A program made the translations under genes and the position numbers. Under the pieces are notes generated by a model. It saw nothing but the letters and a program-made list of their open reading frames with translations, did no database searches and had not been told where the DNA came from. A stretch of DNA of 63,514 nt, counting the filler, from Intoshia linei (lineage: Eukaryota > Animalia > Orthonectida): assembly GCA_001642005.1 (NCBI GenBank). It is 8 parts of 8 records of this genome, joined end to end, with 100 filler letters (N's around TTAATTAATTAA, not from the genome) between each part and the next. Parts side by side here need not be neighbours in the genome. Positions count along the whole stretch, not along the records: positions 7,787 to 18,319 come from LWCA01001261.1; 7 more parts are not named here. One strand, written 5' to 3'. Positions 7,687 through 40,900 of the stretch are shown here, piece after piece; positions within the stretch are counted from its first letter, which is position 1, and each line of letters begins with the position of its first letter.

Positions 7687-8099
7687 NNNNNNNNNNNNNN
7701 NNNNNNNNNNNNNNNNNNNNNNNNNNNNNNTTAATTAATTAANNNNNNNNNNNNNNNNNNNNNNNNNNNNNNNNNNNNNNNNNNNNATTTATAATAAAGT
7801 TACAATAAAAACGACATTACTTATGAAACGACCTAATAACAGTATCTGATTAACATGATTATTCTATGAGTATTATTATGAGGATGACAATTATGGAATA
7901 GAATGGAACGAGATAGATTTCAAATGGTATTTTTTATCAATGTGGGATAAAAGTGGCATTTTTGAAATAATTATATAGCGGTCATCTAGACTTTGGGATA
8001 AAATCCCAACATCTAGCAATTCTGTTTACATTTCAAATTATATTTTAAATTTTGATATTTTTGAAAATATCAAATGTTTGTGAAATGTTTTCGTAATCT

Positions 8100-8520
8100 T
8101 TAGCTACTTTTATCTTTGAAAGCCATATAGATATAAAATATCTATGTGGAGATTTTTCAGCTTCAGACCGATGCATACCATGCGAAGTATTCATGGAATT
8201 CGTTGATATAACAAACTGCTGGTATTAAGATATAAAAGAATTGAAAAAAATTGAAATTTACAGATCAGTATTTCAACCCTTACATTCATGCGAAGAGATG
8301 GTATATCGAACTTTACAGGTAATGTCTTCAGGTATACCTTACATCAGTTTTCGATTCCTTAGCATAATATATGCATTAATATTAAGAAAAGTTTTTAATA
8401 TTCTTGAATTACATATACTGTCTCTCGTTATATATGGAGATAATAACATTATAGCCTGCCATTATGAAAACTTACCAACTCAAAAATAATTGTAAAACAA
8501 ATTTTGTTACTGGGTAATGC
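8100..8520 (+). pseudogene. Endogenous picorna-like virus RNA-dependent RNA polymerase fragment (motifs A, B, C)
   Basis: Motif A YLCGDFSASDRCIP (GD at 8148), followed by FVDITNCWY and a stop at 8226. Motif B HSCEEMVYRTLQVMSSGIP/(frameshift)TSVFDSLA (core 8322-8364). Motif C VIYGDNNII (8433; GDD changed to GDN). Order and spacing are those of Picornavirales 3D polymerase. Confidence 0.9.
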
Positions 8521-8950
8521 CATTGAGACGTGAATGTTACATTCAAAAGAATGTAACATCCTTAATAAATAAAATATATAAAAATCTGACCACTAGTGAG
8601 ATCAGAACTGTACTAGGCGAGCTTATCAATGATGAAAATATCCATTTAATTGCAGAACAGAGTGCACAGTAAATTAAAGATAAAAAACAACAAAAGTTTC
8701 CAATAAAGAATATAATATCTGAATTAAAAAATAATTTAATCTAACATACCGTGAGGCTCAGTAACTCAATTGATAAAGCAATCAGGATAATGACAGAGGA
8801 AAGTACTCAATAAAACGGACAGTAGAATTTCCGGTATCTAATCCGGCAATGCCAAGATCATGGTTCAGGTCGGTATGGAGGTGGTTGGAAACAAAACCTA
8901 ACATTATTACCTTTATCACAATTTACATTTTGTTGCAATTTAACCTTGAA
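8511..8950 (+). pseudogene. Decayed coding block, probably a viral non-structural (2C-3A-like) segment
   Basis: About 140 codons with few stops, directly abutting the RdRp piece. It ends in amphipathic/hydrophobic SWFRSVWRWLETKPNIITFITIYILLQ. No diagnostic motif is present. Confidence 0.4.
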
Positions 8951-9084
8951 TTTAAAATTTTTATCTGCTGTTTCTATAGTTTTAAATTCTCTCTCTCGCC
9001 AAATTCCTTATCTCACCAACTTTTTCTAAATCCCAAGAATGGCAAGTTATAGAGAGAGTACTGTACATTGTATATGTATTCTAT

Positions 9085-9526
9085 GGAGTGGCGGATCTAG
9101 GATTTTTATCTTGGCGGGCGAAATAATTATTAGGGGCCAAACTCATATAATTTATTTAAATTTGAATTTTTATATTATGTTTACAATATATGTTATGTAT
9201 ATTATGTTAATAATATATTTATATTTATAATAATTAATATTTTTTTTATGTTTTCATTTAACTAAATTTTTCAACAACTGCATCAAAATCGACATTTTCG
9301 GCAAGTTCTCTGTCGATTATCAACAACGTTAAGTCAGATAATTTAACTTAAACTGTTGTTAAACTCTAATCATAAATTAATATACATAAAACAAAAACAA
9401 TGATAACAAACATAATTCGATAAACGCTATTTGATGGGTTCTAGAAAAAATTTTTAATTTTACACAATGTTAAAATACAAATTAAAATATATTATGGCAC
9501 ATTTGTCATGCCAGGGGGCGCCCCTA
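9085..9526. mobile_element. MITE-like insertion between viral fragments
   Basis: GC-rich hAT-like ends (AGTGGCGGATCTAGG... and ...GGGGGCGCCCCTA) around an AT-rich core. No TSD was identified. Confidence 0.45.
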
Positions 9527-9845
9527 AACATATAGATAAACAGGTTTTGATATACTTACATGGCATACTTGAAGTAGGCAAGGCGGTCTCAGCTGATCAC
9601 ATATTTACCGACTTATTTAATTTGCTAGAAAAAGATATTTACTTTGCTAACGATAAATACTGTTACAACTCGCTATTACCTTACTTTGATACGTATTCAC
9701 ATCAACCTATATTCGAAATATCAGATCTACAAATGAGAGACAAAAATGTTCAAATGCACTCAAAGCAGGTGACGAAAGCTTATTTCCGCCAAATATAGCA
9801 GACTGCGCAGGCAAAGGTACAATTTACTTTACTTCTAATTTTTTG
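9527..9845 (+). pseudogene. Endogenous picorna-like virus 2C / superfamily-3 RNA helicase fragment
   Basis: Degenerate Walker A VLIYLHGILEVGKA (GxxGxGKS). Walker B region YFDTYSHQPIFEISD (Y.DGY..Q....DD). After a frameshift (9780-9845) LFPPNIADCAGKGTIYFTSNFL matches the 2C motif F.PPMA.LEEKG..FTSN. Confidence 0.9.
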
Positions 9846-10123
9846 TAATAATATTTAATAATAATTTTAATAATAGATAAAAAAGAAATATATAGAGTCT
9901 TTAAGGAAAGAGAGATAATACTTATTTTACCCTGGTAGACCTTTTTCCATTTTTAACGGAGAGGATAGTAGATTTTGCCTACCGCTATGGTAGCAACAAA
10001 AAGAATTTAATCAATAGTAAATCGTTACGGAGTGGAAAATACCCTAAAATGCAAAATATATTATTCATATGGTTTTTAAATAGACGCAAATCGGATTAGC
10101 TGAAGGATAAGACTAAACAAATT

Positions 10124-10230
10124 ATGGATAGAATTAATCCTAATTTCAAATTTAATAACTGTTGGTTGTCAAAATTTAAGAAAAGATTTTCAATTTCGAT
10201 CCGTAAAATGATAGGTTTGTCTTTGTTTGT
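10124..10230 (+). mobile_element. pogo/Tigger (CENP-B-like HTH) transposase fragment
   Basis: FKFNNCWLSKFKKRFSISIRKMIG resembles F.ASNGWL..FKKR..I..RKI.G. Confidence 0.7.
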
Positions 10231-10663
10231 CTCTAATTACGTACGAGATATAATTGACAGCATACGCGCAATCAAAAGCCGGGATGACGAGGATTATGCG
10301 CATGTGGGTTGCATCATGAGGGTAAGAAATACGAAACAGACACATATGACCTAGAGTGTCTAGATCAAGGATACACAACCTTTCCACCAATTCAGCCACA
10401 ATGCTACTTTTCTTATTGGTGCCTCTGCCACACAAAATTTACTTCGACATTGAGAAAGTTTACTCTGGAATCCAGAGTCTGGACCTAAATTTTAGGTCTA
10501 ATAAAATAGTTTTCTTTAAATTTTAATACATTATTGTATCAGCAAGTTTTAATTAATAATTTTCAATTAAAATTAATCCTTAATTCACTCATATAAATTA
10601 ATACCACATTTGTCATTTATCTGAATCGGAATAAATAGCAATACAGTAGTAGTAGGATTAATG

Positions 10664-11424
10664 CAGTGCTTCTCATGGGGGTAACTGGTCACCCTAAGGG
10701 GTGAATACGAAAATTTAGATGATTGTAAGCTACTCTACAAATTTCAACATATTTCATTAAATCATCCAATTTAATATAGTCTTATGAGAAAAAACAAAAA
10801 TTTTACCAACCCTTAAGGAAGAAATCTTTTTTTACCAATATTTTTTTTTAAAAATCCATTTTTACCAAAGTTTTAAAATAAAAACTACCCTATCTGATTC
10901 CAAAAGAAAAAATCAAATTTTACCAACCCTTAAGGAAAAAAATCGCTTTTACCAATATTTTTATGAAAAATCCCATTTTAATAAATTTTTAGATCAATAA
11001 TTCTTCTGATTGATTCCATAAGAAAAAACCTGATTTTAAAAAAATTTGAAAAATTTTAAGATTCCTTTTACTAATATTTTTATGAAAAAACATTAATCAT
11101 TAAGTTTTCGGTAAATAATTAATAATAATAATTGGACAACAGAAAAAAGTTCCATTAAAACCGATTTGTTCATACATTAGAGTGGAAGACATAAAAAATA
11201 TGTAAATAGTAATAATGACATAAAATAATATCAGTGACTGCCTTGATATTGTGTTCCATTCGCTAACATTTTAGAAACTGGGGCAAAGTCAAGAATGTAA
11301 CTTTTTGATTAAAATATTTGAAATAGACATTGAATAAAATCTTAATTTAACTTTTTATTTTGAAGTAAAATGATGTTATGTAAAACAAGCAGATGTATTG
11401 CCCACGGCCGCACGTGCACCCCTG
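10664..11424. mobile_element. hAT-MITE-like DNA with internal ~40-bp tandem repeats
   Basis: CAGTGCTTCTC... left end, ...GTGCACCCCTG right end, and repeated TTTTACCAACCCTTAAGGAA units. The two ends may belong to different nested elements. Confidence 0.5.
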
Positions 11425-11427
11425 ATC

Positions 11428-12138
11428 TAGATCAGATAGTTTCGGGAACTTTTAATACGAAATTGTAAAAAAGAATAACTGAGTGCAGAAATTTTGCAAT
11501 TCAGAAGTTGTTTAGATAACATGAAATCATTTCTAATTCTAGGAATTCAAGATCTGATGACATCTATAACACCAATAAAACATGCGGACCGAAGGAACAA
11601 TGGAAAAATAATTGTTCTACCAACAATTTGAGTTTCAAACTACAAGAAATCGATAGACCTCGCTATAGACACCACGATGCAAAACCGACAATGATTGAAA
11701 AATTAGCGCATTACGAACTTTGTTGTGGTTACAATCACACCGAAAAAAAAGGATGAAAATAGCATATTGATTCGTCGCTAGCGAAATCGCTCAACCTGGG
11801 TCTATACTTGACGGTTACACAAAAGAGGAAGGCATAGTGCTTTATATCCAAACTATAATCGAGAAGTATCGGTGACGCGTTTGCTGATAAACACAGTATC
11901 ACACGCAAACAGAACTGATCTTGTCAACGAAATTATATTTAACAACGTTGGGATAGAGAACAACGCGGGATTAGGGAACAACTACAGATTAATAGATAAT
12001 GCTGAGGATGGAGATTTACCGGGTGTGCAAATGCCAGACTTTGACTTATGGTCATCACACTACGCAATAAACACACGGAAAAATTCAAGAATCAACAAAA
12101 GCACATTGACATTTGTCCAATTATATGGGTTTTTGTGA
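11428..12138 (+). pseudogene. Unassigned GC-elevated intronless coding-like block, probably viral
   Basis: Long frames with sparse stops and frameshifts (...DRPRYRHHDAKPTMIEKLAHYELCCGYNH; IAQPGSILDGYTKEEG; ORF 11872-12138). It abuts the capsid region. No motif was recognised. Confidence 0.4.
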
Positions 12139-12139
12139 T

Positions 12140-13285
12140 AGTTTATACATTTTAGGTCATATTTCAGATCCTACTTTTAAAAGGATACCCACTTTGAATT
12201 TTATAAAAAATGTAGATGCATGGGAAACTAGCAGTACAGAAATTTGGCCACAAATGCAAAGCGAAGATAAACTTGATGTTACAAAAATAGGTAACTTGGA
12301 TAAAACTGCTAAAGATGATAATTTGACAAAATTCGTGGAAGTGCAACCTGAGCAAATAATTACAGATTCTATCTCTGCCGTTATTAGATAGTTCATTCGA
12401 ATGGAGACGAGAATATTCACTTTTCTTAGAAAGATTTTTTCTTCTTGAAAAGTTAATGTTCGATTCCATAATTTCATCAAGTACTCCTTTACTACGTTTT
12501 AATCATGTTTTGTACCTTTTGAATCAGAAATATATACAACAAAAAATTTATCAAGCTTGTGCAATAAGATTTGATATAGAAATCCAACTTAGGGTTGTTG
12601 CCACAAAATTCCATTATGGACAAGTCATGGGATTATTTAAGCCAGGTTTATTACAAAATCAGATAATTGCTTACAGCACTGGTTCCAGTTTAGTACAAGA
12701 AAACTGGGGACCGTATGATTCAGTGCACACTCAGTTAATGTAAAACAAAGTTATATCTATAACTCAAGGTCCTCATGTTTCTATGACATTAAAGTGGCAT
12801 TATCCTTATAATTATGTCAAAACGCGAGAAGGTGTTGATGATTCTTCTAGAAATTCAAGACAGTTAAACAATTTGTACAGGTTTGCTATGTTTGATATAT
12901 AAATTGACTCAAATAGAACCAAGTGATATAGATAAACTACAACTCTTAGTATGGGGAAGGTTTAAAAATGTAAGACTGTTTGGATATTTATTCAATGAAA
13001 TTACACCTCAGAAACTTACCTTGACAGGTCCTACAGCTGTTGGTCAAATGAAAGACAATCAAGATGAAGTAAAAAATATGGATTCTTCATAGTTAAGCAC
13101 TGTTACAACAATTGTAAATACAGTAGAAGTGGACTTAGGACATATTACTAAATTTATTTCGTATTTAGCTATGATGGGTTTTTCTTATCCTAGAAATGAA
13201 GAAGGTCCTAAAAATATAGCCAATAACACTTTTACTACATCCAATTCAGTTGGACCATCAGGAGCTATAACTTTATCCTATAGAG
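12140..13285 (+). pseudogene. Endogenous picorna-like capsid polyprotein: VP2, VP4 and start of VP3
   Basis: IWPQ/MQSED (M at 12254), NLTKFVE, LFLERFFLL, jelly-roll strand AIRFDIEIQLRVVATKFHYGQVM, LKWHYPY, VWGRFKNVRLFG, AVGQ/MKD (13048) and the VP4/VP3 junction AMMGF/SYP (13171-13191; cf. dicistrovirus FGF/SKP). Several stops and frameshifts. Confidence 0.88.
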
Positions 13286-14370
13286 CAGTGGTTACCAAAT
13301 GAGGGCCTACAGAATCTGAGGGGGCCGCAGATTTAAGAAATATTTTAAAATTAAATTAGAATCGTTAACATTAATTAGATTTAGTATTTCATATTTAATT
13401 AATATTTTCTTGAAATTTGGATTAATTTAGGATTTACGAACTTTACGAGTACATTAATGAAAATACAACTGTGAAGAATTTTGTTAGAGAAGATAGCATG
13501 TTCGATGGGAATGATAATGACTTCGTTTTAGATGCATACAATGACTGTTTTGAAAAAAAATGATTTGGCTAATGATGAGTTCCACCAGCATATAAAAATG
13601 ACATGACAAAAATATAGAGCATCCACTGAAAAATGAAAAGGCGCATTTTTTTTCTGGTCGAGTTCAAAAATTTTTTTTAGATTCAAAAGCATGCTCTTCG
13701 CTGCTGATTTATGAATTTACAAAAATAAATGTATTGCCACTATTCATCTTTAATTACGGTATACAATATTGTTCATTATCGATCACGCGACAAAAGTGCT
13801 CTAAAGGAATATATTTTAGGTATTTATCAGTGTTAAAACCATTTGTTTTTAAAAAAACTTTTTATATATTATTTAAGTCTAGTCAACATAATATTTTCAG
13901 TATGTACAAAGGAAAATGATTAACCGACAAAGAAAAGAGGCAATTGATATTCTATTAAAAGAAGCGTACGGTCAGGCCGAAATTGCCATTAAAATAGAAA
14001 GAAGTAGAAAAATTATTCAAACACATATTAGAGTGTCTATCTAACAAAATTTGCCATCGATTAGGACGTCCAGTGAAGCTGTAGATGGAGTTTTTATTTA
14101 ATAGCGAAAGCTGAAGATCAATACAAAGTCACAAAAAAATAGAAAGAAATGATTTATACGCGACTCTTTATATTGCCAGCATTTACTGCAAAATAAAAAA
14201 TTTATACAAAATTAAAGATAATCTGGACCTTATTATTGGACATTGAGAAAAATTGATGATCTTGTAGAATGGTTTGTGGGGCTTACCTACAAAAAAATTA
14301 GTAAAAAGGTTTGAGATGATATTTCATTTTTCCTAAAAATTCTTTTATTCCCCCTACTGCGGCACCTGTC
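13286..14370 (+). mobile_element. Composite transposon insertion splitting the capsid region: hAT-like left end plus Tc3-like HTH remnant at ~13902-14080
   Basis: Starts CAGTGGTTACCAAA. Internal decayed MYKGK*LTDKEK/AIDILLKEAYGQAEIAIKIERSRKIIQTHI...GRPVKL. The right end and TSD are not resolved. Confidence 0.65.
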
Positions 14371-14394
14371 GGGGGTTTCAAAATATTCTTATAA

Positions 14395-14811
14395 TCAGAT
14401 TATATGATTACTCAAGTGTTTACTGAGGAGATTATTAAAGGACCGCGAACAAAATATAGAACACCCATTATAAATGCTCTTGGGTTGGAAATGACTAAAA
14501 CTGATTTATTGGTTACAAGTCAAATGAATGATGGAAATGCAGATATATTGTTGCACAACATTAGACCTAACGTAGGCATTTTATCAAATTTAAGAACCTA
14601 TTGGTATATTACCGCCTTATGCGATTTGACTATATTTTTTGTGAAACATGGAGTTACGTCATTAAGTGAACAAATAACAGCTGTTTTACCTGGAAGAAAT
14701 TCATTCGTTTTTACTTCAGCTGAAACCGTCCATATTTTGTCTAGTGATAATCACCTTTGGGTAGTTGATCTTTCTGTAATTAATTTAAGAAAAAAATTTG
14801 ATTTAGATTAA
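14395..14811 (+). pseudogene. Endogenous picorna-like capsid VP3 core fragment
   Basis: RPNVGILSNLRTYWY...LTIFFVKHGVTS...VLPG...WVVDLS resembles the VP3 pattern PT.LG..S..F.YWRG....F..VKT.FHS....F.PG...VIDL. Confidence 0.7.
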
Positions 14812-15739
14812 ACAAAAACCCAAAAACAAAAAAATTGATTTGACCCTCTGTGAAATGGTGTATCGCTCATTTTCAATTTTTATAGGTACAAATGCTCTAG
14901 GGTGCACGGTCTGAAAAACATTGATTTATAAAAATATCATAATTACCATATTATTTAGCATTAATTTAATTTTTTTAGAAATAGTTTTGTTTTAATTATT
15001 CTCAACATCTTAGATTGATGAAATATCTGATAGAATTATGAAATAATTGTGTAAAAATTTTTTTAATGTTGGGACTCGCGAAATATGTAAAATTGATTTT
15101 TTGGCTTTCACACGCCATGTGTTTGGATCACCATGACTTATGACATTAATATTCATAAAATAGGCATTGGAGTGGTACCATTATACATTGTAATAAATTT
15201 CAGTTAAATTCATTAAATTTTAAGTAAATATTGTAGTATTTTTCAAACATATTACAATATAAACTCTACTATTTTCCTACAATCGAATCTTGAAATAGTA
15301 GTTACATCTGCTTCATTTCAAAGCTATTACTTCTAGCTTCAAAGTTTCTACTACAAGATTATTTAAAGAAATATCATGTATAATACATACCTAAACAATG
15401 TTCAGTGAACATGTTATTATTACCATTAAAATTAATAAAATTATAAATCTTGAGCTTACGCTTAACCAAACGATCGATTTTGCTTCCAAAGTCTTCCATA
15501 TTGCTATCTTTCCAATCATATTGCTTAAGTTGTTTCAATTCTTGATAAAAAAGTAACATTAAAAAACAAGTAAATTTTTTTAGCCACTAAAATGTGACAA
15601 ACTAACTTATAAATAAAATTAAAAATTACTGGTCATTTTGAAGGTTAAATTGTAAATTTAAAAATATTTGAATGTTGAAATAAAATAAATGAATACAATT
15701 TAATGTTAATATTTACAAAAATGCAGATGTAAATCTAAT

Positions 15740-16237
15740 TTAAATAAAAGTGTAATTCTCTTCAATATTGACTTGATGATATCGTTTCATAAAAGTAACA
15801 AAGGTAGATATCCATCTATCGGTTTGGAGGTAATACTCATATTGTGATAAATTATTTTCGCAATTGTATATCCCTGAATCTGATAAAGTGGTGGGTTCAT
15901 CAAATTCGGTATTGTAAATCATTAACTCTTCCATAAATATAACGTTTTTGCACTTTTTGCTTTGACTTTTTTCAGTTACTACCATGTAGGTTACCCCATT
16001 TATTTTTGATAAAAATTCAAATTTATCTAAATGCCATAATTTAAAAAAAATAAAATACAAATACTTAAGATTAATCTAATACAATGTATAATATATATTA
16101 CCAGTTCCAATTTTACGAATATTGTTAGCTTTCAAGTTTCTTTCAATCTTTAATTCTGTATTTTTTTGAAGCAATCTTTGAATTCGTAATAAATATTTTG
16201 CAATCATTTTCTTGTCGGTTGTGTTTAACTTGTTCAT
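15740..16237 (-). CDS. Hypothetical spliced host gene (may continue to ~15300)
   Basis: ATG at 16237 (MNKLNTTDKKMIAKYLLRIQ...), a GT donor near 16101, then the 106-codon frame 16060-15740. No recognisable domain. Confidence 0.35.
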
Positions 16238-17106
16238 ATTTTTGAAAAATGAAAATATCTATTCAATGTTTAATTTCCGTACTTGTTTTATTGTAACTTT
16301 TGTAAAGTGTTAATTATTATCGGTATTGATAAATATGGGGGACACTCCCATTATTTGGATTAAAATTTAATAATTGTTATGATATCGAATACATTTTACA
16401 TAAATTGTGTACAAATAAATTGCTTACTACTCATCCATTCATTTATGAATTACATTTATTTAGTTCATTCAATCATTTCACAAATACTCCAGACACAATC
16501 CGATTGTTTAATTAAATATTAATTTAAAATCAAACAACATTAAAATTTAAAAACTTTCTACAAGACAAGACGTCAACACTTGAAATAATTAATTCATAAT
16601 ACAATGCATTGTATGAAATGTGAACAAGTTTTCTCATAGAAATTAAATATTTTTTATTTTTACATCGAATGGAAAACTATCTGACAAATACTTTTGAAAA
16701 TGTCAGTAAAATAAATTTTTTTGACTTGGTCAGTTATTATTTTATTAGAATAAAAGTATTAGTGTATTTCATCATTAGCGAATAGTTTCCAGCAGATTAG
16801 TTACATTTGCATATTGCTGAAATTAACATTTTAACAACAGATAATTTGAAAATATTTAATATCAAAATTGTTAAATTAGTAATTTTACTGATGTAAATTC
16901 TACGATTTAATAGACTAGTGAAAAGAATCAGAAAATTACAATTTAACCATAAATACAAATTTTAATAGTGCCTTTTCAGCTTTTTGTAAAATTTGAGGGT
17001 CTTTTCCATTAAAGGTGCAACTCTTTTGTTGGCTAAAATTTAAAAATTATAATAAAAACCTGTACGAAACTGCATCCCAAAATGAAATTCCAAAATAAAT
17101 TATTAG

Positions 17107-17352
17107 TCAATTTCTGTAAGTCATTAAATGCGAATAATAAAACAAAAATGTACCATTTCTTTTCCCGTTTTTATTGGTTAAGGAAGATGGATTTGAAAGT
17201 ATAATAGAACTGTCTTTGTTAAAAGCATATTTACGTCGCCAATTGGAAGAAGTATCCGCATTTAAATTAATTGGAGTACTTTTACTAGAAGTTAATAACG
17301 ATTTTCCATATCTGTTTTTATTACGAAATTTGGGATTGGATGAATAATCCAA
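17107..17352 (-). CDS. Possible exon of an unknown host gene
   Basis: Open S/N/K-rich frame with short-intron-like AG/GT borders nearby. No family recognised. Confidence 0.3.
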   Translation of the reverse strand: MDYSSNPKFRNKNRYGKSLLTSSKSTPINLNADTSSNWRRKYAFNKDSSIILSNPSSLTNKNGKRNGTFLFYYSHLMTYRN

Positions 17353-17689
17353 GGTAATTAATTTACTTTTATCTAAATTTAATTAAAATTATACATACTT
17401 TTCATGGTGGTTCTACAAGTTCGAGGTCACCCAAAATGAAAAATAGGCATTTAAAAAAAATCTCAAACGATGCGTAGTGTCATAGCCCAGTGATTCTCAA
17501 AAAATATTGCGCCCCTCTAACAGTATATTTATAATTTGAGACCCTACCATGTGATAACGGTGCTATCCTTCCTTATTTCTTAAAAAAATTGTCTATAAAA
17601 AATATTTAATTTAATAATTTTTCTTACATCTCACATCACCTCAGACTCTGTATGTCCCAATTTGGGAACCATTGATATATTCCTAACCA

Positions 17690-18117
17690 TTAGTTTTCGA
17701 ATGCTAAATTTGAAAAAATAAGGTCCATTGTACACAAATTTTGTTGAGACCCGAAGACGGCTCGGCTGTGTTCCACAAAATAAAAAATTTCAAAAAAGAT
17801 GCATAATTCCACCTCTCCACAACTGTGGAGGGTGTGCAGTAGGGTGTCACACCCATCAAAGAATCAAGGGCAATTAGCACTAGAAGTGTGTATTTTTAAA
17901 ATAGAAAAACTAATTAAAAATTAAATCAAGAAAATTTTATTAAGAGTAATACTTTTATTTCAACAAATAGTATTAAATAAAGTAACAAAAGTAAATATTT
18001 GAAATCCGAAAAGTATGGGATAGCATAACACCCGAAGAGTGTCAGAAACTCGTTCACAGTATGCCACGTCAAATAAATGCTCTTATCGATGCAAAGAGTG
18101 ACAGTACCAAATACTAA
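17690..18117 (+). mobile_element. Internally deleted Tc1-like transposase remnant
   Basis: C-terminus KVWDSITPEECQKLVHSMPRQINALIDAKSDSTKY* (Tc1 W..I....C..LV.SMPRR..AVI.AKGG.TKY). Upstream RCIIPPLHNCGG resembles PTVKHGGG. Confidence 0.8.
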
Positions 18118-20526
18118 CTATGATTTGTATGTATCATAATTAGGGCGATTATTTTTTTAACTAGGACAAATTTTGATATGTTCATACATCTAAAATTATT
18201 ATCATTGTGATTATAATTTTAGGTGTATTAATGGCTAATTAAAATTTGATTAAGTTAATAGCGTTAGAAAGTTAAAATAATATTTTCAAAAGTTAAATTT
18301 TATTTTTAAAAGTTAAATTNNNNNNNNNNNNNNNNNNNNNNNNNNNNNNNNNNNNNNNNNNNNTTAATTAATTAANNNNNNNNNNNNNNNNNNNNNNNNN
18401 NNNNNNNNNNNNNNNNNNNGTTTTCTGTAAAAAAGGATTGTAAGTATAAAAACGTAAAAAATACCTACAAGTTGGATTTAGAGACACTTAATTGATGTCG
18501 TTGTCTCGGCCTTATTTTGTTCATTCTATTTTGTTCTATTCACTTAATTTGTTTTTTTAATAAACTTATTTATACCACTCTACTTTTACTGTTTTACAAT
18601 ATTCATTTTGCACTTAAACTTTATCTTCCACCGCCTAATTCATTTTTACACCGTATACTAATCTATACAATTCATTTCTTTATTTTGCTAAACATTGCAC
18701 TGACTTACATTTAGCACTTAATTTTTATTTTTCGTACACTTGAGGCTCTTATGGGTATATTATAATGTAACGAAGGTGATATTTTGTTACTCTTGCTGTA
18801 GGTCATATAGCTCTGTTCTTTCCCAACGTGCTTTCTTTAAAATAAAAAAAAATACGAAAATTGGCTAAAAAATTATAAAAAAGTGGTTTTTGCCTAATAA
18901 CTTTTTGTTGTACCCCAAGAGAAAAAAGTTCTATTAGGACAGATACAAAGTTGACTATTCCGCTCATTATGAGCTCAAAATCGACTATCTACGATGAGCG
19001 TATCAAAAGTTATAGCGATATTGTCAATTTTCGGCCCCGCTGCCACCTCTAAATTTTTGGTTTTGGTGTATATTTAGACTATTTGTCATGATATGTGAAC
19101 TACCATTTTTGTTTGCTGTGAAATCACTCCACCCTACTAAATATATATCCAAACGTTACTATATTTATGATAATAGATTGGATTCTACCATATTTGATAA
19201 CATTTAGACGGGAATCATCACCTGCAACATTACAAGTCTCACTTAGAGGTGAAATCAAGTTTATAATTCCATTTCAAATAAATGGGACTAATTACCCCGA
19301 TATGGAGAAAACTTGATACATTTATGGATTTTGATAGGTCGAAAATGTATTTTAGAAAAAAGCCAGTTGTAATAACACATTAGAATGAATGCTTAACCTT
19401 ACCATGAGATTAAACTTTAAAACAAAGAACAAAATTTAGTCTTAAATGTAAATTAATTAATAAAAATTAAATGTATATTTGATTTCAAAGTTTTCATTAT
19501 AATTCATATACAGCAGGGTCGGCAACCTTTTGAATCTCGTGGGTCACTTTTTTACATCAAAAAATTATACAGACCCTGTTTTTGAGAATCTACACATAAT
19601 ACATTTCAAATAAAATTAATTTACATATTTACTTAAAGGACAACCAAAATTATTCTGGGGCCACTAAGTAGTTGTAATTGTCGACTCCTCATGTACATTG
19701 TACATAAGTTAATTTACTTATTATTAATAAGTAATGTATTTATAAACAATATTATTATTATATTCTTAACAATATTTTTATAAATAGATATATACAAACA
19801 GGTGCTTGAAAATCCAGAAGTAGACTATATAAATTTTTTTAAAATGACGATTAAATAAAACAAATAAATAAAAAAACATAAATCAAATCAAAATTCTGTA
19901 TAAATATGAATAATTAAATATTCATGAAGTTTTCAAATAGCTAGTAGAATAAACTTGTATTCGAGATATTGTTAAATGTAATGGATTTAAAATCGAGAAA
20001 TCTCTATTTTGTAAAATGAGTACTAGAGTACTATTCATTATTTTGAATAATGAAAACTAATGACTAGAATTTAAATTTTTTTTAATCTAACAAATTTGAT
20101 CAATTTATATGTATATTATACATTGTATAAATTATAAAATTCTTTACCCGTTGTCCATTTTAATTAACATACTTTTAATATCTTTCTTTTTAGATTCTGT
20201 GAAGTTATTTTTAATAGAAATTTGATAATTTTGTAAGGAATTATCAAGTCGAGATCTAGTAATGAACCAGTAAATATTCGTTATCTTATAAAATAATACG
20301 TTTTCAAGTTTAATTTTGTTGGAAAAATATAAGATATGATTTGCAACATTTTTCATCAAAAACATCATTTTTGTCAAATAAAACATTATAACTCATTATA
20401 ACACTGCGATGTATCTTATTGGTTAATTTTTGCTACATTAGTTGAGAAAAGATAAAATTAATGGTAGAAACACTAAATCTCAAATTTTCTTAAATAAAAC
20501 ATTAAAAACTTTAATAAATCTATTAA

Positions 20527-26500: not shown

Positions 26501-29081
26501 TTATAAATTTTACATAGCTTATTTTCAGATTATTATTAGAAAAAAATTCGTTCAACTATATTTATTAATCAATCGTTTATTTTTTTGATTGGTGTTGGGT
26601 AATTTTTTGAGATTGAAATATGTGTCGCCAACCAAAAATGGTTGGAAAGCACTGCACCAATGAGTGACATCGTTTTGTTAGTATAATGCCGTTTCTATAT
26701 TTATCTCAATTGGTAGGTATAAAACTTCACGACACCCCCCAACAACTGGTTTGGTACCCACGGGGGTGCCGGAACCCATGTTTTAGATAAAAAGATATTT
26801 AGAATACTATAATTTACCACATACATCTTAACAAATTTACCTCATCAAACACAATGACAGTGCATAAAGAATCTTTATCGTTCAGATAACTGTCATAATC
26901 ATCTTCATACTGACTAGGATTATCAATCATTTGTACATTTTTTGAAATGTAATCCAATTCGCAGAATACACGGGATGTGTAATCTGGATGATATTTAAAA
27001 TGAGGCAGGGTTAACTTTGATATGATTTCTCCGTTAGATTTATCCATTAAAGCTACCTAATATAAATTTAAAATAATTACAATATAAATGTATGATTCAA
27101 GCAAAATCAGGTTTCTGAATTATGACTGTTATAATATTCTAGAGTGATTGAGCTTAACATAAATAGGATCGCGGATGGGCTATTCATCATATAACGGGTA
27201 AAAATGATACCATTACAAAAAATCTCTAAACCAGACCAATTATAAAATATCAAGGAATAATAACCTTTTTTACATAATATACAAATTATTTAAAAATGAA
27301 ATATCTTGGAACAATTGAATTAGTCACCCTTATCCTATATTGAGTTTTGCATTGTACCATAAAGATAAATGTTGCTACACCAAAAAATAAAACCTGTCCG
27401 TTTGACATGAGCAACAAAATGTACAATCCATCAGAATAAACCGGAGAAGCATTTTTAACATTAAATTTGACAAAATAATTGACAAGAGGTTTAACTCCAA
27501 CAAGAACAGCTTGTAAAATGACATTAAATTTGATTTTTATAAAATCAAACAATTGTAAATGATCGCCAATAGATTCTTCCAAATGTACAATCTTAGAATT
27601 GATAATTTTCGTCATATATTCATTCCTCGTCCATTCGGGGTCAATATTATTTTGCAAATAATAACTAACCACAAAATCTGACGATATAATTAAACGATCA
27701 TTTTGATTAAAAAACATTAACTGATTTTCATTGTGTCTGACAATATTGATATCATTGGATTGAATGGTGTAAGAAAAAGAAAAACCATTAGACCCATCAT
27801 AATCAAATACTTGCACATAATTGTTTCCAGCAAAATGAATTTTTGGATTTTTATATTTATGCTTCAATTTTTTTAAAGAAACTGCAAATTTCTTTGTAGG
27901 TGAATCAAAAAGTATAATTTCAATAGAATCCTGATCAAAACATGCAATTTGATCAAAATCAATATTACAATCAAACGACGGTAAAGGAACAGAAAACGTT
28001 TCTCCATTTGATTTTTCATTCACTACGACAAGACTAGCGTGTTCATCATGTGATATGCCAAATATTCCAAATTTTGACACATAAATTTTAGATAATGGAG
28101 GTGACCTTGTAATTAAATTAAATTTTAGGTTTTTGTAATTTAAGCTAAACAATGAATCTTTTGAATAAATTACAAAATTTAAAGAATCCATATAAGAAAT
28201 TTGACAATTTTCATCTTTAAGTAAATTAGACAAATTTTTTTCGGTTGTCGCTTTCCCAGCCATTGTAAAACATTTAATTTTTTCACATTTTAAATTAACA
28301 CAAATATTTTTAATGTCATTTAAAATGAATAAATTTTTTGGGTTTGAATCCAGCAAGAATCTCCAGACTAAAGGAACATTTTAAATTAATTCAAATTGTA
28401 AAATAGGGTTCAGTGCAAGTCCTTTATTTAATTATTTGGGTACCAAGGGCTTTTAAAATAAATCCTGTAAAGAGCTAATAAGCATTTCTAATCTAAAAAA
28501 ATTTGTTTTGATGGAATCGCTTTATTTTTTGCGTTCATAAATAATCTTTTATTAGTTTTAAAAAATCGATGGCGAAATGAAAGCAGAAAATGGAAAGCTC
28601 ACAATTAAAAATATATGTGGTTGTATCAAAACAAACAATTAGCTTCAGTAATTCTCAAAAAAGTTTTTATCAATATGAGCTAAACTGATTTTAAATGTTA
28701 AATCCTTTTCAAAGAGATATCGTAACAGTATTTTACTGACAAAGAAAGTAAGCAAAAAAATGGGAAATTAAATTTTCATCTTTGGTTTAGTGACAACGTT
28801 GGATTCAATTTACAAAATAGAACTATTAACTATTAAGGTATAATTTACTTATATCTCCATTTTCTAAATTGATTCTAGCCAAATAGTTTGATTTGGTAGT
28901 CAATATCAAATCATTTTGGAAAAATCTCACTTCTTTTGGCATTCCTAAATTTTCCATTTTCCTACATTGTCGATTGATCGTAATTATAAATATTTAATTA
29001 CCATTCCGCGAAATGAACTGCACCAATAATATTCCAGGTTAAATAAACGCACAAATTTACAAACAAATGTGTACGATTCAT
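20527..29081 (-). CDS. EMC1: ER membrane protein complex subunit 1 (multi-exon, apparently complete)
   Basis: Signal-peptide-like exon 1 from ATG 29081; LILTTKSNYLARINLENGDI-WR; RSIINYDRSLTMKYVNQNL; VVDAVSGKII; ITKTRMGLTSK; C-terminus PSQLFDALGEDFNY-TM-AKLLKNSWN, matching EMC1 PSKQFDVLKDDYDY...KLLNRAW. Confidence 0.92.
23660..24085 (+). mobile_element. pogo/Tigger DDE_1 transposase remnant in an EMC1 intron
   Basis: NLDETRLF; MFCSNFDGSHELKPILIGRSFKPRCFK...KRAWMT; ILLLMDNGPAY; FFPPNSTGIL. Frameshifted. Confidence 0.85.
24095..25060 (+). repeat. Dispersed non-coding repeat family; further copies at ~30025-30710 (+), ~60075-60500 (-) and ~2960-3060 (-)
   Basis: Hundreds of bp of near-identical sequence (e.g. 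GTACAAACAG(A/G)ACCTAGCTCTG..., CTTTATTGGAAATGTGTAGACGT). This copy has an internal ~53-bp tandem duplication at ~24467-24572. Confidence 0.8.
25543..25880. mobile_element. hAT (Buster/Charlie-type) MITE; related copy at ~1270-1790
   Basis: TIRs CAG(AG)TGGTTCCCAAA / TTTGGGAACCCCTG; 8-bp TSD ATTTAAAC/ATTTATAC. Confidence 0.75.
26361..26654. mobile_element. hAT MITE (294 bp)
   Basis: TIRs CAGTGATTTCCAACCA / TGGTTGGAAAGCACTG; TSD CACTAATG/CACCAATG. Confidence 0.85.
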
Positions 29082-35071: not shown

Positions 35072-36177
35072 GGCTGGCCACAGGTTTATTTGCACCCAAC
35101 GGAATTTTATTACGAGAATTGACTTCCTTTTTAAAATCTCGTCAGAATGTTTTGGCAAAGGAATGTTTTACCCGCCTCGAAAAAACATTACGAAATGGAC
35201 AACGCAAATATCCGCCTCATACAATTGAAATACAAGCAATACAACGGCGTACCACGCGCATTACTCACAAGGTATACTTTCCAAATTTAACTGATGAACG
35301 TTTCGAAGTTGATTCTGGTTCTCGTGCAATCAATTTATGTCAAGATATATGCCATAAATTGAAATTACAAAATTACAACGGATTTTCTCTGTTTGTAAAA
35401 ATTGCTGATAAAGTCATTAGCGTTCCCAACGATGATTTTTTTTTTGATTTTGTCCGTCATTTAGATGATTGGATTAGAAAATCAAAACCTCTAAATGGTG
35501 CAAATTCAATATTTTATGTTTATCAAGTCTTTTTTATGAAAAAAATTTGGTCACAGACTGTACCGGGTCATGATGTTAATGCCGATTTAATTTTCCATTA
35601 TCACCAAGAATTACCCAAATATCTCAAAGGATATCATGATATAAACCTTGTTCAAGGTGCAAATTTGGGAGCTCATATTTATCGAGCTAAATGTGGTAAT
35701 AGTACCGATACGTCTCAAATTAATAATGTTTTATCTGAAATTATACCCAAAAATTTGCTTAGAGCTCAATCTTTAGAAAAGTGGTTTAAGGACGTTTCAA
35801 AATTGTACTTACAAAACAATAGTCATGGTTGCGAAGACGCTAAACATTGCTTTTTGAGAATATTGTATGATTTACCCACATTTGGATCTTCCTTTTTTGA
35901 AGTCAAACAAACTACGGATCCTTCGATCGATACTAATATTATTATTGCAATTAATAAGAAAGGCGTGTTTTTAATTAATGCTGAAACTAAAAAAATTCAA
36001 ATTAATTATGATTTTAATAAAATTTCAAATTGGTCTAGTGGCAATACTTATTTCCACATGACTATCGGAAATATTATTAAGGGTACCAAACTTCTGTGTG
36101 AAACCAATTTGGGATACAAAATTGATGATCTTTTAACTTCTTATATTAGCGACATGCTTGGAAAAAGTAAAAATTAA
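35072..36177 (+). CDS. MYO7A: Myosin VIIa C-terminal MyTH4-FERM tail (5' cut by the spacer)
   Basis: LATGLF, RNGQRKYPPHTIEIQAIQ, HKVYFP, GFSLFVKIADKVISVP, YQVFFMKKIW, FHYHQELPKYLKGYH, PTFGSSFFEVKQT, ISNWSSGNTYFHMTIGN and LLCETNLGYKIDDLLTSYIS. Confidence 0.95.
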
Positions 36178-37966: not shown

Positions 37967-40900
37967 TAAAGAAGTATCAAATGTCGAAAAACTTATAAAT
38001 GAAAAGGGAGATCAAAAAGTAAATGGTCGTACAAAAGTGAAATCTTTGAATCAGAGTTTGAACGGTTTCAAAACTATAATTTTATTGTTTTTGATTATGA
38101 ATAAAAATGAATTTAGAACGTCAAGTTTTAAAGGAATTAACCATTGATAATGATTGTGATAGCGGATCTGATGATGTTATAGTTAAAAAAAGAAAGCGTA
38201 TTATTATGGAATCGGATAGTGAAGGTCATTTTATTATAATTAATTTATAATTTTACAGATAAATAAAATGTAGATTATTTAATGTAAATAATACATTTAA
38301 TCTCAAAAGTTTAGATCTGGACTTTGAAAGTGATGTAGTAATGAGATTAATTATAATATTATAATATTATTGTGAATAAATTAAAATTTGTAGGAATTTA
38401 ATGAGACTAGTAATAAGAAGGCTAAAAATTACGACATGAGCGAATACAGCTTAAATGAATCTAACATTTCTACTCATGAAAAGATTATAAAAAAGAATAA
38501 AGTAATTTAATCATATATTTTTTTAAAAGTAACAGTAAATTGTACAATTTTAATAATTTATACAAATGTATTAAATTATAAATAATACTAGATATTGAAC
38601 AAAACTAAAAGTGTAGAAAATAAATACGGCGAAAAACACCATTTATCTATGTGGTTTTTGAAAAATGATAAAATGTATTTAAAGTTTTTTTAATAACATA
38701 AATATATTAAAAGTATTACTGTTATTTTTAAAAATTTTAGTCGAGATGCTAATGGTAGATCAAAAAATGACCCAGAATATGACTTTCGAACTCTGTTCGT
38801 TCCGTCATCTTTCATGTCATCGATAACACCGGTAATTTAATGTATATATTATTTTATTTCAAATGGTAATTTTCGTATACCAAACGTTAATCATAGCTAA
38901 TTTATGAAATTCATATACGAATTATTATTTTTAAATGTTCACTTTTTTAGACAAACAGACAATGGTGGGAAGTAAAATCTAAAAATTTTGATGCAATTTT
39001 GTTTTTTAAAATTGGAAAATTTTACGAACTCTTACATATGGATGCATTGATAGGAGTTAAAGAACTCAGTTTATCTTTGATGCGGGTAAAAATTAAATAG
39101 TACGCGATTCACGTTCTTTTTAGGGTGAATATTCTCATGCTGGTATATATTTACATTTTTTTATTATTTTAATTTTTAATATGTAATGTTTACTGTAATC
39201 TATAGGTTTTCCTGAAATGTCTTTTGGTAGATTTGCAGAAATACTTATTACGAGGGGATATAAAGTTTTGCGTGTGGAACAAACTGAAACTGTGACCAAG
39301 ATGAATGAACGAATGAAATGTAAATTTTTTTTTAGATTTGTTTTTGAGTTAAAAGCACATTACTAAAAGAACTTGGTATTCTTTTTACAATTCACCAATC
39401 CTCTGCATCGACATAATTTGTAAATTTTTGGAAACTTTAAGTTATGAAAGATTTTATAATCAGAATCATTAGTATTATATGATGTTTATACCATTTCTCT
39501 ATTTCGCCAAAATTATCAACTATGAAAAATTGTACAAGTCTCAACTGCGATCACAACAGTCATTGGCGAATTAGAGAGAGAATAGTTTATATTGATATTT
39601 ATTGATATGTATTCATTTAGCCTCTGTGAAAGGTAAAAAATGCGTAAATAGAGAAGTTTGTCAAGTTTTAACTAGTGGAACCCGCACTGCGTCAGTTTTT
39701 ACACCATTAAGTCAATATAAATACAAATCCAATTATTTGATGGCTATTTGTGAAAGTGTACGTATTTTAATTTTATAAATTTTTATTTTTTTGTTTGATA
39801 AAACTAATATTTATATAGTATTTATTAAAATTTACGGTCAAACTTTATATATTTTTAAGATATTGTCTTTATTATATTTACGTTATTGTATATTAATCAT
39901 TTAGAAGCCTGACGATTCTCATGAATTTGGTGTCATGTGCTTGGATACTTCTATTGGTCATTTTTATGTAATTTTTAAAAATTTTTTATATTCATGAAAT
40001 GGTCTGTTGCGAAAAAGGGTCCGCTTTTTAAGAATTTAAAAAATTTTATTTCACCTTTGTTCTAGTATAAAAAAAAAAACCGTAATTTGACGCCACTGTA
40101 CTATATTATTTTTTTATTAATTATGTGTTTTTTGAAACTTTCTATGGTCTTCCCTGGTCTTAACACGGACAATGCAAAAAAATATTATATTTGTATTTTA
40201 TTAGGTTGCTAGTTTTAAAGATGACAGACATACATCAAAACTGCGAACCATGATATCTCGATTTAAGCCTTCACAGGTTAATTGAACATTTTTATTGTAC
40301 ATTTATTAATAATTTTATAAGGTTTTGATTGAGAGGACAAATTATTCTGAAAATTTTAAAACGATGTTGAAAACAAATTTATCACATGTTTATATTGAAA
40401 AATTAAAAAAGAATACTGAATTTATGTCTTTTGATGCTGCAATTAATGCAATTAGAAACAATTCTTGTTTATATTGGCCCAATTCAAAGGAAAATGAATC
40501 TGATTTACCTCAATATGTTTTCGATGTTTTAAAAGGTTTTTTGATTGCAGTTATAGTTATAGTATACAGTATTCTCTCTATAACTCGCCATTCTTGGGAT
40601 TTAGAAAAAGTTGGAGAGTTAAAGAATTCAAAATTATAGAAACAGTAGATAAAATCTTTAAATTAAAGGTTAAATTGCAATAAAAAGTAAATTGTAATAA
40701 AAGTTGTAAAATTTAACCCTTAAAAGACTATGGCATGTATATTAGGGCGGTGGTTCCAAAAAAATATATTGCGACCCCCCTAACAGTATACAAATATTTT
40801 TAGAAAAGATCAATTAGTACAAAATAGTAAATATGTGTATTATATTATATGCAATTTATATTATAACAGCCATTAAAAAAATGTTATCTTTTAATATTAC

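Follow-up and report, generated by a model that had tools for sequence, protein, structure and literature searches.

Fragments of a picorna-like virus, shuffled and decayed, on a contig of the orthonectid Intoshia linei

Four fragments of a picorna-like RNA virus polyprotein, representing an RNA-dependent RNA polymerase (RdRp), a helicase, a capsid region and a protease, were identified on one contig (LWCA01001261.1) of the orthonectid Intoshia linei (assembly GCA_001642005.1). The contig belongs to a 63,514-nt stretch of DNA, here called the window, and its features are collected in Table 1. Integration of this picorna-like sequence in nuclear DNA is considered very highly probable. The account of the locus that we favour, with slightly more confidence than doubt, is that of a decayed, non-coding endogenous viral element (EVE) that arose from template-switched cDNA, was inserted in the germline and now lies inside spliced host transcripts. 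The locus is unusual for the virus order, the host phylum, the shuffled layout of four modules and the splicing on two strands.

A preliminary description, covering positions 7868 to 14811, had proposed a 7-kb cluster of endogenised virus fragments. Four viral blocks were indeed found there, all on the + strand, but just 2,287 of the 6,944 bases were virus-homologous, so that about 30% of the polyprotein is represented and about 70% is missing.

Viral modules and their closest relatives

A stop-free piece of the capsid block was searched against 1.84 billion representatives, which gave 29 proteins at E <= 0.001, and all 29 were then compared with the window by tblastn. One of them (P0027) matched nowhere in the window. 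Among 13 long polyproteins, the RdRp and capsid blocks were each matched by 13, the helicase block by 12 and the fourth block by four; the polyprotein that did not match the helicase block (P0012) was also without a helicase in its own Pfam scan. The four blocks matched picorna-like polyproteins encoded by a single open reading frame (ORF) in the order helicase-protease-RdRp-capsid, with E values from 1e-22 to 1e-81; these are RNA viruses without a DNA stage. A profile of natural relatives was run on 846 six-frame segments of the whole window, and values of E < 0.01 were obtained in these four blocks only; the top score in a reversed-window control was 4.0 bits (E 0.19). In Pfam scans of the window's own frames the sole viral family match was that of the helicase, below the cut-off. 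A word-indexed search with the RdRp block returned 0 of 141 candidates, the 'shorter' search with P0002 scored 1 of 7,989, and a related locus was found in none of the 27 pattern matches in viral_contigs and none of the 46 in metagenome_contigs.

Coordinates on the polyprotein are given below for P0002 (2,453 aa), in which Pfam placed PF00910 at 302-413 (E 3e-17), PF00548 at 1005-1121 and PF00680 at 1260-1604. The RdRp block (8100-8480) aligned with P0002 1382-1507 at 45% identity (E 4e-28, tblastn), and motifs A, B and C of an RdRP_1-type polymerase, as expected of Picornavirales, were located at 8148, 8328 and 8436; motif C reads GDN in the window and GDD in the four closest relatives. The top PDB match of the block was the polymerase chain 8iib_A (E 5.6e-5), and 8iib was also the top match of the P0002 polymerase (E 4e-29), far above all others. 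The helicase block (9535-9923) aligned with P0002 297-433, with 65% identity in its first frame (P0002 297-373, E 4e-23, tblastn). Its Walker A motif, at 9562, is decayed and is canonical in four relatives. A direct match to the Pfam RNA_helicase family (E 0.0018) lay under the cut-off, and the assignment to superfamily 3 was made via homology to the PF00910 region of P0002. The RdRp and 2C helicase assignments of the preliminary description are upheld by these alignments.

The capsid block (12113-13287) aligned in three frames with P0002 1626-2054, with sum E values of 3e-74 for P0002 and 3e-81 for P0040, in agreement with the VP2-VP4-VP3 region first suggested. Its first domain is called VP2-like because the matching part of a relative, P0010, hit VP2 chains in the PDB (E 5e-4). 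The VP4 and VP3 labels follow from position and from a motif that we take to be the cleavage site. The Rhv family was found on the capsid-matching part of 6 of 15 proteins scanned, which identifies jelly-roll capsid proteins by homology. A PDB sequence search returned nothing for the two capsid frames or for the protease block, and a 127-aa capsid piece gave a partial model with four fold-search matches, which were meaningless. One database protein, 'hypothetical protein A3Q56_06784 [Intoshia linei]' (P0003), maps piecewise on 12456-13089 and is, as its alignment indicates, a spliced gene model of the capsid block annotated without viral recognition. ORF-level annotation had been expected to miss the locus; a model does exist there, but it was not recognised as viral.

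The fourth block had been described as a VP3 core (14395-14811), a label now ruled out. Positions 14434-14781 aligned with P0002 900-1016 at 41% identity (E 7e-23, tblastn), directly upstream of the GDC nucleophile motif of the relatives and ending before it, and the catalytic His column is kept (14647). The block matched none of eight capsid regions (best E 0.068). In a Foldseek search with its structural model (pLDDT 72), the top rows were enterovirus and hepatitis A 3C proteases and DegS, the best at E 0.014 and none at 0.001. We conclude from these comparisons that the fourth block corresponds to the N-terminal half of a 3C-like, chymotrypsin-like cysteine protease; the aligned relatives carry the GDC motif and PF00548. 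Since this block is protease and not VP3, all four virus modules are present, and their order is shuffled. An invariant His was also noted at or next to the acidic-triad position that follows the catalytic His (14743-14754); it is shared by each of the 11 rows of alignment A1 and by each of 13 further printed rows. The position compared is the one that we take to be the picornaviral 3C site, and the protease triad of this virus group may be unusual.

The blocks lie in the window as RdRp, helicase, capsid and protease, that is, as 3-1-4-2 of the viral order, and they derive from non-overlapping parts of the polyprotein; for four independent inserts, the computed chance of one shared strand is 0.125. 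All relatives with at least two modules mapped have the order helicase-protease-RdRp-capsid, of which the helicase-protease-RdRp part is typical of Picornavirales. Since the order is broken in the window and intact in the relatives, the array is a rearranged fossil and not a genome.

Trees were built from single frames with X at stops, and without a classified marna-, dicistro- or calicivirus. The RdRp block grouped with P0002, P0040 and P0004 (22 rows, of which 21 were references; support 98/99), as did the VP2 part of the capsid block (29 rows; 100/99). The helicase block grouped with P0002 and P0040 (98/93) and the protease block fell in the same clade (100/99); P0012 and P0026 are missing from one or both of these two small trees, as they had no region to contribute. 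Cryptolin calicivirus 1 (WOC29232.1, P0005) belonged to the closest group in three of the four trees; the group that followed held Beihai sesarmid crab virus 2 together with unnamed relatives. The word 'calicivirus' in Cryptolin calicivirus 1 is the depositor's name. By Pfam, no calicivirus coat family was present on P0002, P0004 or P0005, the last of which has four families. Together, the trees assign all four blocks to one unclassified picorna-like clade.

In the closest relatives, a single ORF of 2,354-2,856 aa runs from helicase through capsid, which comes last. Cryptolin calicivirus 1 and the Logan polyproteins P0002, P0040 and P0004, which form one clade with the blocks, are intact ORFs of 2,436-2,625 aa, whereas the window holds some 30% of such a polyprotein, broken and shuffled; the blocks are 40-68% identical to P0002 or P0040, and 40-66% to P0002. 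Beihai sesarmid crab virus 2, Beihai barnacle virus 4 and Fesavirus 1 are more distant. A dicistro- or ifla-like source, as first proposed, is contradicted by this layout: none of the close relatives has the two ORFs and the intergenic internal ribosome entry site before the capsid that define Dicistroviridae, and in all of them the capsid is C-terminal, not N-terminal to the replication module as in Iflaviridae. Two side observations concern the relatives. A 168-aa NCBI protein (P0036, from a 717-nt contig) carries a VP2 piece 71% identical to P0002 and is, by that match, a further virus or EVE of the clade; and a zinc finger of the double-stranded RNA (dsRNA)-binding type (PF12171/PF12874) lies within the capsid region of P0014 (Beihai barnacle virus 4, 1757-1781) and of P0028.

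Two other I. linei proteins, both annotated as 'hypothetical protein', matched P0002 at 1515-1806 (P0006, 14,058-nt contig; 45%) and 1557-2231 (P0011, 2,537-nt contig; 44%). They read through the RdRp-capsid boundary, unlike the dicistrovirus layout. As protein models they are capsid-bearing and group with P0002 and P0040 (92/96), apart from the window copy. I. linei is therefore assigned, on these alignments, two more gene models of the same virus clade, and the locus is no isolated event. Independent integrations are not claimed: free trees separate the three copies, but approximately unbiased tests did not reject a single origin (p 0.10; pairs 0.23 and 0.17).

Integration, decay and splicing

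Coding-sequence decay is evident but milder than had been described. Three stops (RdRp 1, capsid 2) and three frame changes (helicase 1, capsid 2) were counted in seven aligned cores, the GDN and altered Walker A motifs are as reported, and the protease block is fully open; none of the four blocks is a whole domain.

Sequencing contigs were taken from six runs of two studies (2016 and 2024), of which four (X1-X4) contain part of the stretch; X1 is DNA by guess, and no argument was built on the small share in X4 or on the zero share in X5 and X6. Single X1 contigs (7811-8988, 9282-9944, 11299-13371 and 14009-14680) each cross a boundary between a viral block and sequence that is multi-copy or non-viral. 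In X2, from the second study, the boundaries are crossed by 7898-8988 (1 difference), 9282-9657, 11290-12484, 12802-13371 and 14009-14716; the X2 pieces carry 0-7 differences each, and the sequence is near-identical across the runs of both studies. The depths of the X1 contigs (10-21 on viral blocks, 5-10 on nearby low-copy sequence) are no copy numbers and were not used. Contiguity with host DNA is further indicated by repeats common to other contigs, the multi-copy spacers matching other contigs of the window at 71-93%. Interruption by host transposons, as proposed earlier, is borne out to the extent that these repeats and one helix-turn-helix (HTH) remnant of Tc5/pogo type (PF03221) were found. 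Neither terminal inverted repeats nor target-site duplications were found at the spacers, so that the label of miniature inverted-repeat transposable element (MITE) is unproven; 13870-14310 has some resemblance to Tc1 elements, and Pfam gave nothing for it.

Two low-copy spacers that abut viral blocks (8505-8906 and 11460-12109) had no match to the profile of the relatives or in Pfam, apart from one sub-threshold Mnd1 row for 8505-8906. Against four close polyproteins their best local scores were 31-48, inside the shuffle range. Their source may be this virus, as rapidly evolving parts of it, or a different virus, or the host.

At 97% likeness, five joints were listed. Four have GT..AG or CT..AC ends and occur in X2 or X3 only, none in X1, and the fifth lies in a repeat. 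Three more - strand introns were found at 15540-17154 in X2-X4 (among 15 of 66 joints), and all seven joints picked for canonical-looking ends have proper donor and acceptor context. Through the joints 7926-9629, 7926-13431 and 13800-14690, all of the blocks but the capsid are connected in the order seen in the window. From these features X2-X4 are inferred to be RNA libraries. Picorna-like viruses have no DNA stage, replicate in the cytoplasm and have unspliced RNA; GT..AG splicing therefore means nuclear transcription from DNA, which is foreign to such a virus. Together with the boundary-crossing contigs of two studies, the joints thus place the array in nuclear DNA, and with the decay they corroborate the view that it is integrated DNA rather than contaminating viral RNA.

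The viral blocks are likely to be transcribed as non-coding RNA within spliced host transcripts. A viral protein product is unlikely: none of the joints opens a viral reading frame that has a start codon, and the exon in the helicase block leaves out Walker A, which lies upstream of it. Two units run towards each other across the array, one on the + strand that begins upstream of 7828 and the other the - strand gene at 15.4-17.4 kb. Antisense transcription, as described for Aedes EVEs, may occur in the protease block, which contains a - strand joint (one run, short side 27 letters); + strand joints lie over the other blocks. The - strand gene (15377-17372) reached a contig depth of up to 775 in X2-X4, and its 3' side faces the protease block. 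Positions 7859-7926 and 13432-13563 hold acidic, non-viral, stop-free stretches (22 and 43 codons) that are in frame across a 5.5-kb GT..AG intron; this intron contains the RdRp, helicase and capsid blocks, and no in-frame ATG lies upstream. The pair is possibly a decayed host gene, or a product of chance (1 in 3).

Origin of the array and comparison with known elements

Under the favoured account, the reverse transcriptase of a host retrotransposon would have copied viral RNA, jumping between parts of the template, to give a composite, non-collinear cDNA; as an alternative within the same route, a few captures from one infection would have entered one site. Germline insertion would have taken place once and been followed by splitting by DNA-type repeats, and the array would have persisted as non-coding sequence that gives no viral protein and is transcribed by read-through from flanking host units. 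A host enzyme is required because picorna-like viruses have no DNA stage and unspliced RNA, and the transposon remnants on the contig, being of DNA type, do not supply a reverse transcriptase. A composite cDNA produced by template jumping is consistent with the shared strand, the lack of overlap, the single clade and the scrambled order. In mosquitoes, retrotransposon-virus recombinant DNA forms without sequence homology (PMC6797480).

Several points weigh against this account. The template-switch route was not itself seen, and its chances are judged to be evenly balanced. No reverse transcriptase, integrase or long terminal repeat (LTR)-element gene was matched by Pfam in the six frames of the contig, a scan that would miss LTRs that are non-coding or very decayed. 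None of the block ends carries a poly(A) run. The two spacers that abut viral blocks are unexplained. The divergence from P0002 relative to P0004 ranges from 0.90 to 1.66 across the blocks, which fits separate sources or ages, or noise. The run records do not describe X2-X4 as RNA. A single study supplied all three linking joints, two of which have a short side of fewer than 30 letters. No listed contig covers the whole stretch, the capsid block is placed by the assembly alone, and X1 may be the assembly's own source.

The differing divergence ratios, and the low-copy spacers and repeats that separate the blocks, would also be expected of a locus that trapped separate captures over time in a transcribed, repeat-rich site giving antiviral small RNAs, like the PIWI-interacting RNA (piRNA) clusters of mosquitoes. 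The joints on both strands, one of them antisense through the protease block, and the two further loci of the same clade in I. linei agree with this, and piRNA-like small RNAs from probable EVEs have been described outside arthropods, in the dog whelk among others (PMC6085071). Such a trap is nevertheless thought unlikely, as a single virus clade is detectable in the window and the contig has no LTR-element coding sequence by Pfam, unlike Aedes clusters. One long collinear copy, later cut, deleted and re-ordered by host rearrangement at DNA repeats, would leave blocks on one strand without overlaps and repeats at several block ends, as observed, and P0006 and P0011, which are collinear across the RdRp-capsid boundary, indicate that longer collinear inserts occur. 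The 3-1-4-2 order would, however, need several transpositions and no inversion, some 70% of the polyprotein is absent, and within unbroken contigs the RdRp and capsid blocks each border directly on an unrelated low-copy spacer; this origin is held to be improbable.

It is very improbable that the array combines real EVEs from different places, mis-assembled across repeats, or is contaminating DNA of another organism. The assembly is from short reads, Logan contigs break at each repeat with none covering the stretch, and I. linei lives inside another invertebrate. On the other side, the splice-type joints connect 7926-9629, 7926-13431 and 13800-14690 in window order, the GC content (28.7%, against 25.7% for the window) speaks against foreign DNA, and the repeats are common to other contigs. 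It is scarcely credible that the blocks are viral RNA, whether contaminating or replicating, or belong to a virus with this order by nature: nothing beyond the homology itself favours this, and it is opposed by the stops, frame changes and altered catalytic motifs, by presence in a run of DNA type (kind guessed), by GT..AG splicing and by the helicase-protease-RdRp-capsid order of every relative with at least two modules mapped.

I. linei is a tiny marine orthonectid, a highly simplified, worm-like parasite placed in Lophotrochozoa (PMC12249979). A viral-family RdRP in the proteome of the same species was read in 2019 as a probable horizontal transfer from viruses (PMC6396948), in one sentence with the family given by figure colour and no accession in seven supplements; it is likely another locus, because the method used needed a near-complete domain in a predicted protein and the block in the window is broken and has only 130 codons. 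In the literature covered, which did not include the I. linei genome paper, no account of this locus, of any orthonectid EVE or of orthonectid viruses was found, and Orthonectida were mentioned only in a tree in the part of PMC11097642 that was covered.

The nearest published elements are the dicistrovirus-like non-retroviral EVEs (nrEVEs) of horseshoe crabs, TgEVE3 and TtEVE3 (PMC12282059). Like the array, these are Picornavirales-derived fragments in a marine invertebrate, and most EVEs of that study are transcribed; they stem from a dicistrovirus non-structural polyprotein in a chelicerate, whereas the window has four modules, including capsid and protease, shuffled and from a single-ORF clade, in an orthonectid. 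The nrEVEs in LTR-rich piRNA clusters of Aedes aegypti (PMC6797480) are likewise fragmentary and lie among transposon remains; they are transcribed, with antisense coverage. Unlike them, the array represents one virus clade, and embedding in LTR retrotransposon sequence or a reverse transcriptase remnant was not found by Pfam in the six frames of the contig. EVEs from positive-sense single-stranded RNA viruses in Symbiodiniaceae (PMC10235124) are fragmentary and were used for host assignment, and a nodavirus-like EVE of Bursaphelenchus (PMC5177903) is expressed and host-assigning; both concern other virus groups and hosts and have retroelements adjacent, and none was found beside the blocks of the window.

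The rarity of picorna-like EVEs, stated earlier, has indirect support in surveys: 13% of tephritid EVEs are positive-strand and none is picorna-like by the families listed (PMC10689555), negative-strand viruses are over-represented and positive-strand ones a minority in wasps (PMC10259472), and the Bombus EVEs covered are not from Picornavirales (PMC12922265). Dicistro-like EVEs have, however, already been published. Expressed EVEs have been called rare (10.1101/041665).

Through this locus, an unclassified clade of single-ORF picorna-like viruses that had been seen in assemblies only acquires a probable animal host, and Orthonectida join the groups in which RNA-virus fossils occur. With a four-module shuffled array and two more loci, the route of capture becomes testable, and the joints on both strands make a lophotrochozoan small-RNA defence through EVEs testable at a defined locus. 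Transcripts of these blocks would pass as viral contigs, which calls for caution in virus mining. A bolder proposal, which we consider speculative and improbable, is that I. linei accumulates in its DNA a continuing record of a picorna-like clade that infects orthonectids, with captures at at least three loci and an intronic array read on both strands as a dsRNA or piRNA precursor that guards against living relatives. If true, an antiviral memory based on EVEs would exist outside arthropods, built from a rarely endogenising virus order and without LTR clusters, and one of the most reduced animals would keep such a DNA record.

Contig setting and other features of the window

The window is AT-rich (GC 25.7%) and consists of separate contigs joined by seven identical 100-base spacers (44 N, TTAATTAATTAA, 44 N). 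Table 1 lists the features of the contig that carries the array.

Table 1. Positions of viral, host and splice features (P0002 coordinates in aa; short sides of joints in letters)
Feature	Position	Strand	Evidence or remark
Starts of the joining spacers	3061, 7687, 18320, 34972, 56666, 58863, 61715		Neighbours across spacers are not genomic neighbours
Host contig, 10,533 nt between N spacers	7787..18319		N runs
Non-viral upstream exon; GT donor joined to 9629 and 13431	7828..7926	+	Joints in X2/X3 contigs, not X1; canonical ends
RdRp fragment, motifs A-C (P0002 1382-1507), one internal stop, motif C = GDN	8082..8504	+
Low-copy coding-like spacer, abuts RdRp block	8505..8906		With RdRp on one contig in X1 and X2
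Multi-copy host repeats, right end approximate	8909..9520		80% to 40565-40704; summed contig depth in hundreds
Fragment of a superfamily 3 (2C-like) helicase (P0002 297-433) with decayed Walker A and a single frame change	9532..9848	+
Helicase-block part serving as exon	9629-9816	+	Splice-type joints
Tc5/pogo transposase DNA-binding domain (HTH) remnant	10043..10207	+	PF03221 E 2.4e-5, above cut-off
Multi-copy host repeats including 116-nt tandem unit, ends approximate	10370..11450
Low-copy coding-like spacer, GC 37%, abuts capsid block	11460..12109		With capsid on one contig in X1 and X2
Capsid fragment: VP2-like domain, VP4-like linker (label presumed), start of next domain (P0002 1626-2054); spread over three frames, with two stops	12110..13287	+
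Multi-copy host repeat terminating capsid block	13280..13423		92% to 41093-41178, 75% to 17604-17680
Non-viral segment, exon on both strands	13431..13800		Acceptors: 13431 (+ strand), 13800 (- strand)
N-terminal barrel of 3C-like protease, with VPg-like region (P0002 900-1021); free of stops, His 14647 retained, half with the nucleophile missing	14428..14796	+
Protease-block part inside - strand exon	14690-14796	-
Spliced host gene without Pfam match, directed towards viral blocks, ends approximate	15377..17372	-	Three CT..AC joints, X2-X4
Joint	7926-9629	+	Short side 29 in X2, 98 in X3
Joint	7926-13431	+	Short side 28, X2
Joint	9816-9877	+	Short side 69, X2 and X3
Joint, inside protease block	14690-13800	-	Short side 27, X2

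Elsewhere in the window, a weak transposase-type HTH was seen on another contig at 7390-7490 (+ strand, E 0.0015-0.008), and an exon matching the WDR35/TULP4 N-terminal repeat (E 4e-10) lies at about 430-550 on the - strand, again on another contig. An open frame of 364 codons at 27286-28380 (- strand) had no Pfam match. On a further contig, positions 35074-36177 (+ strand) hold an uninterrupted MyTH4-FERM frame of 367 codons, with PF00784, PF21989, PF00373 and PF02174 above the cut-off.

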